Source: Escherichia coli
GTDB taxonomy: Bacteria > Pseudomonadota > Gammaproteobacteria > Enterobacterales > Enterobacteriaceae
Strand: one strand, 5' to 3'
Length of the DNA stretch: 64,000 nucleotides
Assembly (NCBI RefSeq): GCF_050920415.1
Contig: NZ_CP169309.1
Both the position numbers and the translations under genes were made by a program. Each line of letters opens with the position of its first letter. Within the stretch, counting starts at the first letter, position 1. Below are positions 3,650-44,162 of the stretch, piece by piece. The notes beneath the pieces are model-generated. The model made no database searches and had not been told where the DNA came from. It worked only from the letters and a program-made list of their open reading frames with translations.

Positions 3650-3737
3650 GGTGAGGTGTCCGAGTGGCTGAAGGAGCACGCCTGGAAAGTGTGTATACGG
3701 CAACGTATCGGGGGTTCGAATCCCCCCCTCACCGCCA
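3650..3737 (+). tRNA. serW: tRNA-Ser (anticodon GGA), 88 nt including CCA
   Basis: GGTGAGGTGTCCGAGTGGCTGAAGGAGCACGCCTGGAAAGTG...GGGGGTTCGAATCCCCCCCTCACCGCCA; acceptor stem ggtgagg/cctcacc, long variable arm, encoded CCA. Confidence 0.95.
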
Positions 3738-3787: not shown

Positions 3788-3867
3788 CTGCCTGTACGGC
3801 AGTGAACAAAATTACAAAGCATCAAAACCAGGGAATAGTTTTCTAAGCTGCCTGTACGGCAGTGAAC
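3788..3867. repeat. Two copies of a 20-bp direct repeat ctgcctgtacggcagtgaac (3788-3807 and 3848-3867), each holding a small hairpin
   Basis: Exact 20-bp identity read from the sequence, 60 bp centre to centre. Confidence 0.6.
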
Positions 3868-20330: not shown

Positions 20331-21332
20331 ATGATTGATTTACGCAGTGATACCGTTACCCGACCGAGCCGCGCCATGCTCGAAGCAATGATGGCCGCCC
20401 CGGTTGGGGACGACGTTTACGGAGACGACCCTACCGTTAATGCTCTGCAGGACTATGCGGCAGAGCTTTCCGGGAAAGAAGCCGCCATTTTTCTGCCTAC
20501 CGGCACTCAGGCCAACCTGGTCGCTCTGCTCAGTCACTGCGAACGCGGCGAAGAGTATATTGTCGGGCAGACTGCACATAATTATCTGTACGAAGCCGGC
20601 GGCGCTGCGGTACTGGGCAGCATTCAACCGCAACCTATCGATGCTGACGCCGACGGTACGCTACCGCTGGATAAAGTGGCGATGAAAATCAAACCCGACG
20701 ATATCCACTTTGCCCGCACCAAATTACTCAGTCTGGAAAACACCCACAACGGCAAAGTATTGCCGCGTGAATACTTAAAAGAAGCATGGGATTTTACCCG
20801 CGAGCACAATCTGGCGCTGCATGTTGACGGTGCGCGCATCTTTAATGCCGTGGTGGCTTACGGCTGCGAACTGAAAGAGATCACGCAATATTGTGATTCG
20901 TTCACCATTTGTCTGTCGAAAGGTCTTGGTACGCCAGTCGGTTCATTACTTGTCGGTAATCGTGATTACATTAAACGCGCCATCCGCTGGCGGAAAATGA
21001 CTGGCGGCGGGATGCGTCAATCCGGGATTCTGGCCGCAGCCGGAATGTATGCGCTGAAAAATAACGTTGCACGCTTGCAGGAAGACCACGATAACGCCGC
21101 CTGGATGGCGGAGCAACTGCGTGAAGCAGGCGCGGATGTCATGCGCCAGGACACCAATATGCTGTTTGTCCGCGTCGGACAAGAAAATGCTGCCGCGTTA
21201 GGCGAATACATGAAAGCGAGAAACATACTGATTAACGCCTCGCCGATTGTCCGCCTGGTAACCCATCTCGATGTCTCGCGTGAACAACTGGCAGAAGTCG
21301 CAGCCCACTGGCGCGCTTTCCTGGCGCGTTAA
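20331..21332 (+). CDS. ltaE: Low-specificity L-threonine aldolase
   Basis: 333-aa [36 protein letters not shown]... Confidence 0.95.
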
Positions 21333-21342
21333 GGAGAGAGAC

Positions 21343-22773
21343 GTGCCGCAACGCATTTTAGTTCTCGGTGCCAGTGGCTACATTGGTCAGCATCTGGTGC
21401 ACGCGCTTAGCCAACAAGGGCATCAGATCCTGGCGGCGGCACGTCACGTCGACAGGCTTGAAAAGCTGCAACTGGCAAACGTCAGTTGCCATAAAGTCGA
21501 TCTCAGCTGGCCGGATAACCTTCCGGCCCTGTTGCAGAATATCGATACCGTCTATTTTCTGGTGCACAGCATGGGCGAAGGCGGCGATTTTATCGCTCAG
21601 GAACGCCAGGTAGCTCTTAACGTCCGCGATGCGCTGCGCGAAGCACCGGTTAAACAATTAATCTTTCTCAGTTCATTGCAGGCCCCGCCTCACGAGCAGT
21701 CGGACCATCTGCGCGCCCGTCAGGCTACGGCGGATATTCTTCGTGAAGCGGGTGTCCCAGTGACCGAATTGCGCGCCGGAATTATCGTTGGTGCAGGTTC
21801 AGCGGCGTTCGAAGTCATGCGCGATATGGTTTACAACCTGCCAGTGTTAACGCCGCCACGCTGGGTTCGTTCACGCACCACGCCCATCGCGCTGGAAAAC
21901 TTGCTGCACTATCTGGTGGCGCTGTTAGATCATCCGGCCAGCGAACACCGCATCTTCGAAGCCGCCGGACCAGAGGTGCTCAGTTATCAGCAACAGTTTG
22001 AACATTTTATGGCGGTGAGCGGTAAGCACCGCTGGTTAATCCCCATCCCCTTTCCCACCCGTTGGATCTCGGTGTGGTTTCTTAATGTGATTACCTCCGT
22101 ACCGTCAACCACCGCCAAAGCGTTGATTCAGGGACTGAAACACGATCTGCTGGCTGATGACACCGCGCTACGTGCACTCATTCCACAACGGCTGATCGCT
22201 TTCGATGACGCGGTACGTCGCACCCTGAAAGAAGAAGAAAAACTGGTCAACTCCAGCGACTGGGGATACGACACTCAGGCCTTTGCCCGCTGGCGACCGG
22301 AGTATGGCTATTTCGCCAAACAGGCAGGGTTTACCGTTAAAACTTCTGCCAGCCTTGCGGCTTTATGGCAGGTGGTGAATCAAATCGGCGGTAAAGAGCG
22401 TTATTTCTTTGGCAATATTTTGTGGCAAACCCGGGCGTTGATGGACCGCGCAATCGGTCATAAGCTGGCGAAAGGCCGCCCGGAGCGTGAATATTTGCAG
22501 ACCGGAGATGCGGTGGATAGCTGGAAAGTGATTGTCGTTGAACCGGAAAAACAACTTACGCTGTTATTTGGCATGAAAGCGCCGGGGCTGGGACGACTGT
22601 GTTTTACCCTGGAAGATAAAGGTGACTATCGTACTATCGATGTTCGCGCATTCTGGCATCCGCACGGTATGCCGGGGCTGTTTTACTGGTTATTGATGAT
22701 CCCCGCGCATCTGTTTATTTTTCGCGGAATGGCAAAACGAATCGCCAGACTGGCAGAACAAAGCACAGATTAA
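21343..22773 (+). CDS. ybjT: NAD(P)-binding Rossmann-fold protein YbjT
   Basis: GTG start at 21343 gives 476 aa, preceded by aaggag; N-terminal [10 protein letters not shown] dinucleotide-binding motif; ORF-track 5' extension overlapping ltaE rejected. Confidence 0.85.
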
Positions 22774-35997: not shown

Positions 35998-37131
35998 TTA
36001 AACCGTCAACACCACACAGCTGTCCACTTCCCAGCACAAACGCACTTCGTCGCCCCAGGTCGGTAACCCTTTGCGATAACGATGGGCGTTTTGTAGCTGG
36101 GCGCTAATCATCTGCCCGCTTTTTAGACGAACGTGATACACCGAAAGATCGCCGAGATAGGCAATGTGCATCACCTCCCCTACCGCGAAGTTACAACCAT
36201 TGGCGGGCGGCTCCTCGCAGAGCATGATTTTTTCCGGACGCAGCGCCACATGCACCGGCACGTTATCGACCACCGAAGCATCTACATCAACTTTCAGTGG
36301 ATGCACCAGCCCCGGCGAATAAAGCACCAGACCATCTTCCTGACGCTCTTTGAGTACACCTTCAAAGACGTTTACCGAACCGATAAATTCAGCGCTATAG
36401 CGGGTGGTCGGATGCTCGTAGATCTCTTCCGGCTCGCCAATCTGGACAAATTTCCCACGATTCATAATGGCGATACGCCCCGCCATGGTCATCGCCTCTT
36501 CCTGATCGTGGGTGACCATCACACAAGTCACACCAACGCGCTCCAGAATATCCACCACTTCAAGCTGCATCCGGTCACGCAATTTTTTATCCAGCGCGCC
36601 CATCGGCTCGTCGAGCAGTAATAGTTTTGGGCGCTTGGCAAGGCTTCGGGCCAGTGCCACACGCTGTCGCTGACCGCCGGAAAGCTGATGCGGTTTGCGT
36701 TTGGCGAACTCCTGCATATGCACCAGCCCAAGCATCTCATTGACCCGGCTGGCAATTTCTGCTTTCGGCAGCTTGTCCTGTTTCAGGCCAAAGGCGATGT
36801 TCTGCTCCACGGTCATATGCGGAAACAGCGCGTAAGACTGAAACATCATATTGATAGGGCGCAGGTAAGGCGGCACCTGTGATAAATCGACGCCATCGAG
36901 CATAATCTGCCCGGCAGAAGGTTGTTCGAAACCTGCCAGCATACGCAGCAGCGTGGACTTGCCACAGCCGGATGCGCCCAGCAGCGCGAAGATTTCGCCT
37001 TTATAGATGGTCAGGCTGACATCATCGACCGCATGCTGACCATCGTAAGATTTAGTCAGATTACGGATTTCTAATAGCGGCGTCAGCGCCTTACGGGTTT
37101 TCGCCTGGGGGCGAGGGATAGCGTCATTCAC
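35998..37131 (-). CDS. potG: Putrescine ABC transporter ATP-binding protein PotG
   Basis: 377 aa from GTG at 37129-37131 (N-terminus NDAIPRPQAKTRK...); Walker A GASGCGKST, LSGGQRQR. Confidence 0.94.
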   Translation of the reverse strand: MNDAIPRPQAKTRKALTPLLEIRNLTKSYDGQHAVDDVSLTIYKGEIFALLGASGCGKSTLLRMLAGFEQPSAGQIMLDGVDLSQVPPYLRPINMMFQSYALFPHMTVEQNIAFGLKQDKLPKAEIASRVNEMLGLVHMQEFAKRKPHQLSGGQRQRVALARSLAKRPKLLLLDEPMGALDKKLRDRMQLEVVDILERVGVTCVMVTHDQEEAMTMAGRIAIMNRGKFVQIGEPEEIYEHPTTRYSAEFIGSVNVFEGVLKERQEDGLVLYSPGLVHPLKVDVDASVVDNVPVHVALRPEKIMLCEEPPANGCNFAVGEVMHIAYLGDLSVYHVRLKSGQMISAQLQNAHRYRKGLPTWGDEVRLCWEVDSCVVLTV

Positions 37132-37225
37132 GGCTGCTCTCCGGCATTGAATGTGTGCAAGCGCACCCTGATGGTGCGAATTGCCGGCGGGTGTGGTGCG
37201 CCCGTCCGGCATCTACGGCTGCGGA

Positions 37226-38338
37226 TTATTTTCCGCTCTTCACTTTGGTCCACGCGCGGGTGCGCACACGGTCGATTTTCGGATCCTGCACTTTCAGAGT
37301 GAACAGCTTCGCACGGACATCCGCAGGCGGGTAAATACCGGGGTTATCACGCACTTCCGCGCTTACCAGCGGCGTAGCTTCTTTGTTCGCGTTGGCATAG
37401 AACACATGGTCAGAGATATGCGCTACGACATCCGGACGCAGCAGGTAATTCAGGAACTGATAAGCTTCGTCTTTATTTTTGGCATCCGCAGGCATGGCAA
37501 ATACATCAAAGAATGCCATCGCCCCTTCTTTCGGAATCGAGAACGAGACATTAACGCCATTCTTCGCTTCCTTCGCGCGGTTTGACGCCTGCCAGACATC
37601 GCCCGCCCAGCCAATAGCGACGCAGATATCGCCGTTTGCCAGGTCGTTAATGTATTGAGATGAATGGAAATAACGAATGTTCGGGCGCAGCTTTAACAGC
37701 AGATCGGTTGCCGGTCCGGTGTAATCATCTGCTTTAGTGCTGTTGGGATCTTTACCGAGATAATTCAGCACGGTAGCAAACACTTCTTCCGGTGCATCAA
37801 GGAAAGAGACGCCGCAGCTTTTCAGTTTTTCCAGATTTTCAGGTTTGAGGATCAAGTCCCAGCTATCGACGGGCGCGTTTTCGCCCAGCACCGCTTTAAC
37901 TTTATCGACGTTATAACCAATCCCGGTCGTCGCCCACATATAGGGCATAGCAAATTTATTGTCGGGATCGTGTTTGGCGACCAACTTCAGCAGTTCCGGG
38001 TCGAGATTCTTCCACTCCGGCAATTTGCTTTTATCCAGCGGCTGGAAAACTCCCGCAGTCAACTGGCGCTCCAGAAAGCTGGCAGATGGAACCACCAGGT
38101 CAAAGCCGGTGCTCCCTGCCATTAATTTGCCTTCCAGTACTTCGTTAGAGTCGAAAACATCGTAGACGACTTTAATACCGGTTTCTTTTTCAAAATTGGC
38201 CACCGTGTCCGGGGCGATATAATCAGACCAGTTATAAATGTGGAGTGTTTTTTGTTCAGCCGCGAGCGTGCCGACAGAGACGGCCATCAGAGCACCCGCA
38301 ACCAGACCCGATAGCCATTTTTTATTTAAGGCGGTCAT
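37226..38338 (-). CDS. potF: Putrescine-binding periplasmic protein PotF
   Basis: 370 aa from MTALNKKWLSGLVAGALMAVSVGTLAAEQKTLHIYNWSDYIAPD...; upstream extension trimmed. Confidence 0.96.
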   Translation of the reverse strand: MTALNKKWLSGLVAGALMAVSVGTLAAEQKTLHIYNWSDYIAPDTVANFEKETGIKVVYDVFDSNEVLEGKLMAGSTGFDLVVPSASFLERQLTAGVFQPLDKSKLPEWKNLDPELLKLVAKHDPDNKFAMPYMWATTGIGYNVDKVKAVLGENAPVDSWDLILKPENLEKLKSCGVSFLDAPEEVFATVLNYLGKDPNSTKADDYTGPATDLLLKLRPNIRYFHSSQYINDLANGDICVAIGWAGDVWQASNRAKEAKNGVNVSFSIPKEGAMAFFDVFAMPADAKNKDEAYQFLNYLLRPDVVAHISDHVFYANANKEATPLVSAEVRDNPGIYPPADVRAKLFTLKVQDPKIDRVRTRAWTKVKSGK

Positions 38339-38396
38339 ATCTCTTTCCTTCTGAAAGTTCGTTAACAAACGAACAAAAGTTGTCACACTGAAAGAT

Positions 38397-38413
38397 ATGC
38401 AATATTCGTGCAT
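38397..38413 (-). promoter_or_regulatory. Weak sigma-54-like -24/-12 element upstream of potF
   Basis: Minus-strand sequence aTGCACgaataTTGCAt resembles TGGCAC-N5-TTGCA (one G missing in the -24 box), about 60 bp upstream of the potF ATG. Confidence 0.3.
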
Positions 38414-38688
38414 ATTTTTTATCGGCTCGGTGTAAGAAAAGAGAACTCTCTCCCGGCCAGCACTGCTCGCTATATAAAAGCATCGCAAGAATAACTTTAG
38501 CCAGGGTTTGAGACTATAGCTCGGATTAAAAAACGGTATTTAACAAATTTTTATGCGTATTTGCTCTATGTGATAAAGCCAAATCGGCACAAGAGAAGTG
38601 AAATAATCTTTAAGAAAAGGTTAAAAACAGCAGATAATTTTGCAGCACGCAGTCACTGCGGCAGCGACTGCGTGCTCGAAAGGAGTTA

Positions 38689-39252: not shown

Positions 39253-40155
39253 CTAACCACCCGTTTTCAGGCAATATTCGGTCGTAGCGTGGCGTTCGAT
39301 CCAGCGGATCATTTTACCCGCGATGTCAATACCGGTGGTTTTTTCTATTCCTTCCAGCCCCGGCGACGCATTCACCTCCATCACCAATGGCCCGCGATTA
39401 GCACGCAGAATATCCACACCAGCAACGTCCAGCGCCATCGTTCGCGCGGCTTTTATCGCGATTTCACGCTCCTGTGGTGTGATACTGGCAACGCTTGCCG
39501 CGCCACCTCGATGCAAATTGGAACGAAAATCGCCCTCTTTCGCCCGCCGTTCAATCGCAGCGACCACTTCATCGCCAACAACCAGGCAGCGGATATCGCA
39601 CCCTTGCGCCTCTTTGATATATTCCTGCACCAGAATATGCGCGTTCAGACCGCGAAAGGCGTCAATCACGCTTTCCGCCGCCTGACGCGTCTCCGCCAGC
39701 ACGACACCAATTCCCTGCGTACCTTCAACCAGCTTAACCACCAGCGGCGCACCACCGACCATGTCGATTAAATCGCTGGTATCATCCGGCGAATGCGCAA
39801 TGCCCGTGACAGGCAGGTCGATGCCCTGACGCGCCAGCAGTTGCATCGAACGCAATTTGTCACGCGCCCGGGCAATGGCGACCGACTCATTGAGCGGATA
39901 GCTCCCCAGCATCTCGAACTGGCGCAGTGCCGCCGTCCCATAAAAGGTAATGGCGGTGCCAATACGCGGGATCACAGCGTCAAAATGGGGTAACTTGCGG
40001 CCTTTGTAGTGAATAGAAGACGCCGCAGGATTTATGTTCATGTAGCAAGAAAGCGGATCAAGAATTTCAACCAGGTGACCACGCTGTACAGCGGCTTCAC
40101 GCAGCCGCTTACACGAATAGAGCGTTCCATCCCGGGACAATATGGCAATTTTCAC
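39253..40155 (-). CDS. rimK: Ribosomal protein S6 glutamate ligase RimK (ATP-grasp)
   Basis: 300-aa [25 protein letters not shown]... Confidence 0.95.
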
Positions 40156-41658: not shown

Positions 41659-42033
41659 TTAATTTTTTCTGTGCTGTGATTTAAACAAACTGCTGATAAA
41701 TAAGAAACACAATGCCCCCAACGCACACCAGAACACCGCACTTAATAACCATGCCAGCTCTTGCCAGAATGAGCGCGTTGGTGAAAAAAACAGCCGCATT
41801 ATGAGCATCGAACAGGGTGCCGCCAGCATTGCGCCAAACAGAGGTTTCAGGACTTCTCTACGCTGTGAAAAGAAGCTGGCAACCGCTCCAGGAAGAATGA
41901 AAAACAGCAAACCAATTTCAGGATGCCCGGCAGCCCGAAAAGCGCCTTTCATGTGCGTCGCCAGAAAAAGGCACACCACAATGAAGAGGACAAAACAGCA
42001 GATTGCCCCCGCCCAACGTTGTTTATGTTTCAC
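41659..42033 (-). CDS. ybjM: Inner-membrane protein YbjM
   Basis: 124-aa hydrophobic ORF in the expected position. Confidence 0.85.
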   Translation of the reverse strand: MKHKQRWAGAICCFVLFIVVCLFLATHMKGAFRAAGHPEIGLLFFILPGAVASFFSQRREVLKPLFGAMLAAPCSMLIMRLFFSPTRSFWQELAWLLSAVFWCALGALCFLFISSLFKSQHRKN

Positions 42034-42302
42034 TCGTTCCTCCTGACACTGCGTCTATCGAACACATTTTTCGCCAGTGTGGCGTTCAGTAAGATAAAGC
42101 CGCTTCGCATTCCATGCTAATATAGGCCAACGCAATTCATATAGCCGTTGATACCTAATGTGATTACACTAGTAAAATATATTGTTACTTTACTATCGTT
42201 TAGGTGCGCTGAATGAATCTGCGCCCTGAATTCTGGTAAAAAACATTATCGTAAATTACCATTTCTTTCAACAGCTTACTAGTAAACAAGAAGTTAGTCT
42301 CC

Positions 42303-43988
42303 GTGAATATAAACGTCGCCGAATTGTTAAATGGGAATTACATTCTGTTATTATTTGTGGTCCTCGCGCTTGGGCTATGTCTCGGAAAGTTACGACTTGG
42401 TTCGATCCAACTGGGTAATTCCATTGGCGTTTTAGTCGTATCGCTGTTATTAGGCCAACAACATTTCAGCATTAACACCGATGCGCTTAATCTTGGCTTT
42501 ATGCTGTTTATTTTCTGCGTCGGGGTCGAAGCCGGACCGAACTTTTTTTCCATTTTTTTTCGCGATGGGAAAAATTACCTAATGTTAGCACTGGTGATGG
42601 TTGGCAGTGCGCTGGTGATCGCCTTAGGGTTAGGTAAGCTGTTTGGCTGGGATATTGGCCTGACGGCCGGTATGTTAGCAGGCTCTATGACGTCAACACC
42701 GGTTTTGGTCGGTGCTGGCGATACACTGCGTCATTCCGGCATGGAAAGCAGGCAGCTCTCACTGGCACTGGATAATCTGAGCCTCGGGTATGCCTTAACC
42801 TATTTAATCGGTCTGGTGAGTTTGATTGTTGGTGCGCGTTACTTGCCGAAATTGCAGCATCAGGACTTACAGACCAGCGCCCAGCAAATCGCCCGCGAAC
42901 GTGGCCTGGACACAGATGCCAACCGTAAGGTTTATTTGCCGGTGATCCGCGCCTACCGCGTCGGCCCGGAGCTGGTGGCCTGGACCGATGGCAAAAATCT
43001 GCGTGAACTGGGTATTTATCGGCAAACCGGCTGTTACATTGAACGTATTCGGCGTAACGGGATTCTGGCAAATCCAGACGGTGATGCCGTACTACAAATG
43101 GGCGATGAAATAGCGTTGGTAGGCTATCCCGACGCCCACGCCCGACTCGATCCCAGTTTCCGTAATGGCAAAGAAGTTTTCGATCGTGACCTTCTCGACA
43201 TGCGTATCGTCACTGAAGAAGTGGTCGTTAAAAACCATAACGCTGTAGGCAAACGTCTCGCACAACTGAAGTTGACCGATCACGGTTGCTTCCTTAACCG
43301 CGTCATTCGTAGCCAGATTGAGATGCCGATTGATGACAACGTCGTGCTTAACAAAGGTGACGTTTTACAAGTCAGCGGCGATGCCCGTCGCGTAAAAACC
43401 ATCGCCGATCGCATCGGCTTTATCTCGATTCACAGCCAGGTCACTGACTTGCTGGCATTCTGCGCCTTCTTTGTTATTGGGCTGATGATCGGGATGATCA
43501 CCTTCCAGTTCAGCACATTCAGTTTCGGCATGGGGAACGCTGCCGGGTTGTTATTCGCCGGAATTATGCTGGGCTTTATGCGCGCTAACCACCCGACCTT
43601 CGGTTACATTCCGCAGGGTGCATTAAGCATGGTGAAGGAGTTCGGCTTGATGGTGTTTATGGCAGGCGTTGGTCTGAGCGCTGGTAGCGGTATTAATAAC
43701 GGCCTGGGCGCGATTGGCGGTCAGATGTTGATTGCCGGATTGATTGTCAGTCTGGTGCCAGTGGTTATCTGCTTCTTGTTCGGTGCTTATGTATTGCGAA
43801 TGAACCGCGCACTGTTGTTCGGCGCAATGATGGGCGCACGCACCTGCGCGCCGGCAATGGAGATCATCAGTGATACAGCTCGCAGTAATATCCCGGCGCT
43901 GGGCTATGCGGGCACTTACGCAATCGCCAACGTCCTGCTGACGCTGGCAGGGACACTCATCGTCATGGTATGGCCAGGATTAGGATAA
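42303..43988 (+). CDS. ybjL: Putative transporter YbjL (AAE family, with TrkA-C domains)
   Basis: 561-aa ORF with GTG start ([20 protein letters not shown]...); duplicated membrane domains flanking a soluble domain. Confidence 0.9.
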
Positions 43989-44064: not shown

Positions 44065-44143
44065 GCCACTGCTTTTCTTTGATGTCCCCATTTTGTGGAG
44101 CCCATCAACCCCGCCATTTTGGTTCAAGGTTGGTGGGTTTTTT
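44065..44143 (+). ncRNA. rybB: RybB small RNA (sigma-E-dependent, Hfq-binding, represses OMP mRNAs)
   Basis: gccactgcttttctttgatgtccccattttgtggagcccatcaaccccgccattttggttcaaggttggtgggtttttt matches RybB, including the terminator hairpin and T run; lies between ybjL and rcdA as in K-12. Confidence 0.9.
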
Positions 44144-44162
44144 GTTATCTAAAATTTATCTA

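Follow-up and report, generated by a model that had tools for sequence, protein, structure and literature searches.

GTG start codons of potG, ybjT and ybjL in an Escherichia coli chromosomal segment: agreement with the K-12 annotation and contrasting initiation contexts

We examined translation starts in a 64,000-nt stretch of the Escherichia coli chromosome (contig NZ_CP169309.1, hereafter the window), and conclude that potG, ybjT and ybjL very probably initiate at the GTG codons listed in Table 1, read as fMet, and that these are the orthologous K-12 starts. The window runs from poxB to gsiA, with the gene order poxB-ltaE-ybjT ... art ... potIHGF ... ybjL ... gsi. Positions 36000-38500 shared 100% identity with E. 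coli MFDS1022581 and 95-99% with nearly every other complete E. coli genome, and the initial ~6.8 kb of the window diverged from the MFDS1022581 record. Translated from each GTG, the first 40 residues matched K-12 PotG, YbjT and YbjL, and both the nearest complete genome (annotated by PGAP) and the curated K-12 MG1655 record NC_000913.3 had the starts of all three genes at identical codons. Start position, the GTG itself and protein length were the same in K-12 potG (b0855), ybjT (b0869) and ybjL (b0847) as in the window, with 1.8-6.1% nucleotide difference between the two strains in these genes. A first-pass annotation of the window, made from the letters alone, had named the same three codons by matching to the expected protein N-termini, and this assignment held in every comparison above. 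It had also expected the assignments to affect annotation; they leave it unchanged because they already match the curated record. Since PGAP and NC_000913.3 place the three starts at the same codons, they were already known, and nothing at these coordinates is new: the existing K-12/RefSeq annotation is restated.

Table 1 Coordinates of starts, coding sequences and associated features in the window.
Feature	Position	Strand	Remarks
potG GTG start	37131..37129	minus	same start in PGAP and K-12
potG CDS	35998..37131	minus	377 aa; PGAP and NC_000913.3
potG SD GGAGAG	37137..37142	minus	5 nt before GTG; anti-SD duplex -6.6 kcal/mol
potF stop TAA	37228-37226	minus	13 nt upstream of rejected potG ATG
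Rejected potG upstream ATG	37212-37210	minus	ORF 35998..37212, 404 aa
ybjT GTG start	21343..21345	plus	same start in PGAP and K-12
ybjT CDS	21343..22773	plus	476 aa; PGAP and NC_000913.3
ybjT SD AAGGAG	21331..21336	plus	overlaps ltaE stop TAA 21330-21332; duplex -9.2 kcal/mol
Rejected ybjT upstream ATG	21271..21273	plus	inside ltaE; ORF 21271..22773, 500 aa
ybjL GTG start	42303..42305	plus	same start in PGAP and K-12
ybjL CDS	42303..43988	plus	561 aa; PGAP and NC_000913.3
Near-invariant block at ybjL start	42240..42350	plus	~-63 to +48, ~110 nt, 67 Enterobacteriaceae sequences
ybjL in-frame ATT, codon 14	42342..42344	plus	putative alternative start (INRI-seq), rejected
Short ORF MNLRPEFW ATGAATCTGCGCCCTGAATTCTGGTAA	42213-42239	plus	AGGTG box, upstream of ybjL
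rimK GTG start	40155..40153	minus	GTG in K-12 too
ybjM GTG start	42033..42031	minus	GTG in K-12 too

The 52 genes mapped in the window start with ATG in 47 cases and with GTG in five (ybjT, potG, rimK, ybjM and ybjL), or ~10% non-ATG. Typical E. coli starts are 83% ATG, 14% GTG and 3% TTG, i.e. ~17% non-ATG (bioRxiv 10.1101/063800), and an excess of non-ATG starts in the window is thus ruled out (5/52). GTG starts are routine, since about one in six E. coli genes has a non-ATG start. The earlier list of three non-ATG starts was incomplete, having missed the GTG starts of rimK and ybjM. Across related loci, rimK starts with GTG in 65 and ATG in five, and ybjM with TTG in 36 and GTG in 12.

We recovered orthologous loci by scanning one genome per species for rlmC, a gene located between potG, ybjT and ybjL, and taking 10-kb flanks, which yielded 80 Enterobacteriaceae loci; orthologues were located by tblastn and the codon aligned to residue 1 was scored. 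Few four-fold degenerate sites were invariant in this sample (0/113 in potG, 5/104 in ybjL and 6/132 in ybjT, or 0-5%). Neutral sites are scrambled at the divergence of the survey, while the start codons stay start-capable in all three genes. Of 72 potG sequences, 57 had GTG at the homologous codon, 15 had TTG and none had ATG, and GTG was found at ybjT in 19/19 and at ybjL in 67/67 sequences, with usually no in-frame start between the ybjL codon and the upstream stop. The alignment with orthologues that had been proposed as a check on the three starts therefore came out in their favor. The ltaE start codon was ATG in nine related loci and GTG in seven. In most other genera, the K-12 ybjO ATG aligned with AGG, CAG or ACG, none of them a start codon, and INRI-seq gives an in-frame TTG at +15 for ybjO (PMC9825163); judged from these alignments, ybjO may start elsewhere in other genera, or in K-12.

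The potG GTG follows a Shine-Dalgarno (SD) sequence whose strength equals the median among the 52 window genes. The core CCGGAGA was present in 72/72 sequences, and the 5-nt spacer after it occurred in 22 variants; sequence farther upstream could not be aligned between genera. We picture potG as being translated by fresh ribosome loading on the conserved GGAGAG, which would be independent of potF and would follow a 94-nt non-coding spacer. At ybjT, the SD reported by the first-pass annotation is indeed present, 6 nt before the GTG. It ranks 8/52 in the window by duplex energy, and the hexamer TAAGGA, which includes the ltaE stop, was conserved in 19/19 sequences. The GTG begins 10 nt after that stop, and the ybjT start region (-17.4 kcal/mol) is among the most folded in the window. 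In translationally coupled operon pairs the downstream SD lies inside the upstream gene or where that gene ends, and the merged ltaE stop and ybjT SD (TAAGGAG) are arranged likewise, a layout shared by 19/19 sequences. By analogy with such pairs, ltaE and ybjT are probably translationally coupled: ribosomes terminating on ltaE would open the structured ybjT start region and then reinitiate. Reg-Seq, for its part, handles ybjT as a gene with a simple promoter of its own (PMC7567609). RNA structure as an explanation was discarded, as none of the three start regions folded more stably than its shuffled controls (z = -1.1, -0.4 and -0.4).

Both potG and ybjT can be read as longer ATG-led frames, which the first-pass annotation had set aside on the ground that they would overlap upstream genes. 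This is true of ybjT, where the last 62 nt of ltaE lie within the 500-aa ORF, and untrue of potG, where the 404-aa ORF does not reach potF because the potF stop lies wholly upstream of the ATG. That potG starts at this ATG, alone or beside the 377-aa form, through reinitiation 13 nt after potF, is nevertheless highly improbable. The 404-aa ORF is open in the window strain, in K-12 and in a third, E. coli-like locus, and the potF stop is so near that reinitiation without an SD is possible; the K-12 PotG protein record stands at version 4, and the original 1993 operon description reportedly used the longer form. Those three loci are, however, the only ones with the 27-codon ATG extension. Escherichia sp. 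E1V33 has lost it, E. whittamii has a stop at -13, the ATG or the frame is gone in nearly all other genera, and 17 loci carry a stop at -1, directly before the GTG/TTG, none of them with another in-frame start nearby. The upstream ATG also has no SD and sits inside a GC-rich stem. Against K-12, the 81-nt extension has zero synonymous and two non-synonymous codon changes, compared with 52 and four in the potG CDS. The 404-aa protein aligns to the E. coli PotA structure only from residue 39 (PotA residue 10), so that PotA is collinear with the 377-aa form and lacks any equivalent of the extension.

The longer ybjT frame fares worse still, and a start at ATG 21271 is almost certainly wrong, although the ORF is open from that codon in the window strain. 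K-12 has ACG in its place. Read in the ybjT frame, each of the six differences from K-12 in the 72-nt extension changes the amino acid (six non-synonymous, zero synonymous); read in the ltaE frame, none does (six synonymous, zero non-synonymous). The ybjT CDS shows 68 synonymous and 14 non-synonymous codon changes. In eight loci, from eight other genera, in-frame stops at -4 or -7 upstream of the GTG break the long ORF, and the strong, conserved SD stands directly before the GTG. Homology of the 500-aa form to YlbE (PDB 3dqp) begins only at residue 28 (residue 4 when counted from the GTG), where the Rossmann strand RILVLGASG begins and aligns to YlbE residue 2. Because the potG and ybjT extensions show only non-synonymous change against K-12 and the coding sequences are under purifying selection, we infer that both are chance open frames and non-coding. 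For both genes we thus retain the GTG starts.

Published start-site data bear unevenly on the three codons. INRI-seq (Hör et al. 2022, PMC9825163) translates synthetic transcripts spanning -30 to +150 of every K-12 gene in vitro in the presence of retapamulin. Its templates, with only 30 nt upstream of each start, leave out the potG ATG at -81 and the translation of ltaE. The potG GTG gave 0, 0, 5.2, 7.3 and 0 CPM from a template of 36 CPM and was called, with a Ribo-RET value of 0 (PMC9825163); the peak was weak and passed the authors' threshold in 2/5 replicates (PMC9825163). By our own arithmetic, the potG signal per unit of template is about in the range of that of the ATG-started potI. 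No peak was found at the ybjT GTG (template 39 CPM, Ribo-RET 0) or at the ybjL GTG (template 661 CPM, Ribo-RET 0) (PMC9825163). Non-detection is common in these assays, since INRI-seq confirms ~70% and in vivo Ribo-RET ~18% of annotated starts (PMC9825163), and coupling to ltaE would explain why the isolated ybjT fragment is silent in vitro. The TRAINSPOTTER supplements have no entries for potG, ybjT or ybjL by name, b-number or UniProt accession, and the TetRP supplements have none for the three genes. The published supplements searched thus gave neither an N-terminal peptide nor an in vivo start-site signal for potG, ybjT or ybjL.

The start of ybjL stands apart. Its GTG already heads the longest ORF of the gene, and its anti-SD duplex of -1.1 kcal/mol ranks 48/52, which amounts to essentially no SD; the start region is A/U-rich and unfolded (-4.6 kcal/mol). 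In the INRI-seq data a peak appears instead 39 nt downstream, at the in-frame ATT of codon 14 (51.9 CPM, 4/5 replicates, Ribo-RET 0), and is listed as a putative new site (PMC9825163). Initiation of ybjL at this ATT (42342), or at another internal codon such as the TTG of codon 8, would fit a GTG that lacks an SD and stays silent despite a 661-CPM template. Comparison of 67 sequences makes it very unlikely. Codon 14 was ATC in 48, ATA in 13 and ATT in only six, so that 61/67 carry ATC or ATA, which is ordinary synonymous variation of an isoleucine codon. Rare AUU-initiated genes are known in infC and pcnB. The in vitro ATT peak of ybjL is like theirs, but the ybjL ATT is unconserved (6/67) and has protein-level constraint upstream of it. 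At the protein level, residues 2-13 (NINVA[D/E]LLNGNY) are conserved, and codons 2-13 have six variable sites, five of them at third positions (67 sequences; p ~0.02 by our own binomial estimate). Homology to the aspartate/alanine antiporter AspT begins at residue 5-6, YbjL residue 6 aligning with residue 5 of AspT in PDB 8xw5. The ATT signal was, moreover, obtained in vitro only, from a -30..+150 fragment, and such INRI-seq sites are termed putative by their authors (PMC9825163). The GTG accordingly remains our preferred start for ybjL as well.

This GTG lies within a near-invariant block of the alignment (Table 1). Synonymous variation in ybjL is suppressed in codons 2-16 and returns from about codon 17. 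Because the conservation covers non-coding sequence too, constraint at the nucleotide level contributes at the ybjL start. The block includes a palindrome, TTAC-NN-GTAA at 42276-42285, whose arms are fixed in 65/67 sequences and whose central two bases vary; from this pattern it looks like a candidate protein-binding DNA site. Reg-Seq places three repressor sites in the ybjL promoter, with no factor identified (PMC7567609). None of the three start regions, the ybjL block included, had a match in Rfam, even at E <= 1. The short MNLRPEFW frame just upstream was considered as a ybjL leader peptide and rejected; it is probably not one, since the stretch is unconserved between genera. Initiation at ybjL would rest on the A/U-rich, weakly folded leader within the ~110-nt near-invariant block, and the block could, acting at the RNA level or as a dense operator array, gate the weak GTG start. 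That it is an undescribed cis-regulatory element is an idea to which we give a low probability, together with the weaker one of selection on the potG codon described below.

How far these codons lower initiation, as the first-pass annotation had suggested for all three genes, depends on their surroundings. In reporters, GUG and UUG gave 10-100% of the initiation from AUG (bioRxiv 10.1101/063800). The suggestion is partly supported: it is true on average, it is generic for these genes, and the context differs among the three. Weak initiation is plausible for ybjL because the gene lacks an SD and its GTG was silent in vitro despite an abundant transcript, and initiation there is probably inefficient or conditional. 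The ybjT codon has a strong SD in a coupling layout, and the potG codon a median SD.

The potG codon also raised the question of why it is never ATG in our sample. Parsimony on a neighbor-joining tree of 70 sequences gave five G/T switches at its first base and zero to A. ATG is generally the favored start state (Belinky et al., PMC5622118), and the five G/T switches with none to A therefore hint at selection against ATG in potG. A GTG/TTG-only pattern was also seen in ybjM, and GTG was invariant in ybjL and ybjT; because these genes behave alike, the potG pattern may be ordinary retention of a start-codon state at the depth surveyed. Polyamines enhance initiation that depends on GUG/UUG in cya, cra, spoT, uvrY, frr and gshA, and for gshA the criterion was stimulation at the level of translation that is abolished by an AUG start (PMC4405209). 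Like these members of the polyamine modulon, which have inefficient start codons, potG starts with GUG/UUG; its product is a component of a putrescine importer. In the literature searched, we found no report of a polyamine effect on PotG synthesis, and the link to the modulon is a resemblance and a lead only. As the weaker of the two ideas, the potG start may be kept non-AUG by selection, perhaps making synthesis of the putrescine importer polyamine-responsive.

The potF-potG spacer drew attention for other reasons. A pattern scan found no intrinsic terminator on the coding strand between the two genes. At 37163-37177 the spacer carries a perfect palindrome, GCACC-N5-GGTGC, which we take to resemble the NtrC binding-site consensus; the pattern has two matches in the 64 kb, compared with 0.3 expected. 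Loci of Citrobacter, Enterobacter and Leclercia have similar palindromes at this position. The second 'hairpin' of the spacer was considered as a terminator and is better read as this NtrC-type DNA palindrome. An NtrC gSELEX peak has been mapped in the potF-potG spacer, and potG and potI are induced in an NtrC/RpoN-dependent manner (Shimada et al. 2021, PMC8743547). Inspection of the spacer by eye found no sigma-54 promoter (GG-N10-GC); the nearest match to the sigma-54 pattern lies upstream of potF, outside the spacer.

Several other features were recorded in the window. Between ybjQ and ybjP lies an intact 594-codon ORF at 25242-27026 (minus), where K-12 has no gene; in MFDS1022581, PGAP calls it a pentapeptide-repeat protein, split there by an IS2 that the window lacks, so the window derives from a strain closely related to MFDS1022581 but distinct from it. 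A tRNA-Ser (GGA) gene occupies 3650-3737 (plus), and ~100 nt farther on is a single Rfam CRISPR-DR4 repeat match (3840-3867, minus, 50 bits), which may be a leftover repeat from the type I-F-associated array region of E. coli. Rfam also matched the REP-derived element naRNA4 between artM and artJ, at 31313-31393 (minus), and the sRNA RybB at 44068-44146 (plus), just downstream of ybjL; both are expected from K-12.

The value of this analysis is mainly quality control, in that longest-ORF calls of 404 aa for potG and 500 aa for ybjT are wrong and the shorter GTG forms right. Its most interesting by-products are the conserved block around the ybjL GTG and, between potF and potG, the NtrC-type site. 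Nor does the identity of the start codon by itself predict weak initiation, since ybjT combines its GTG with a strong SD and a coupling layout, whereas ybjL has the same codon and no SD.
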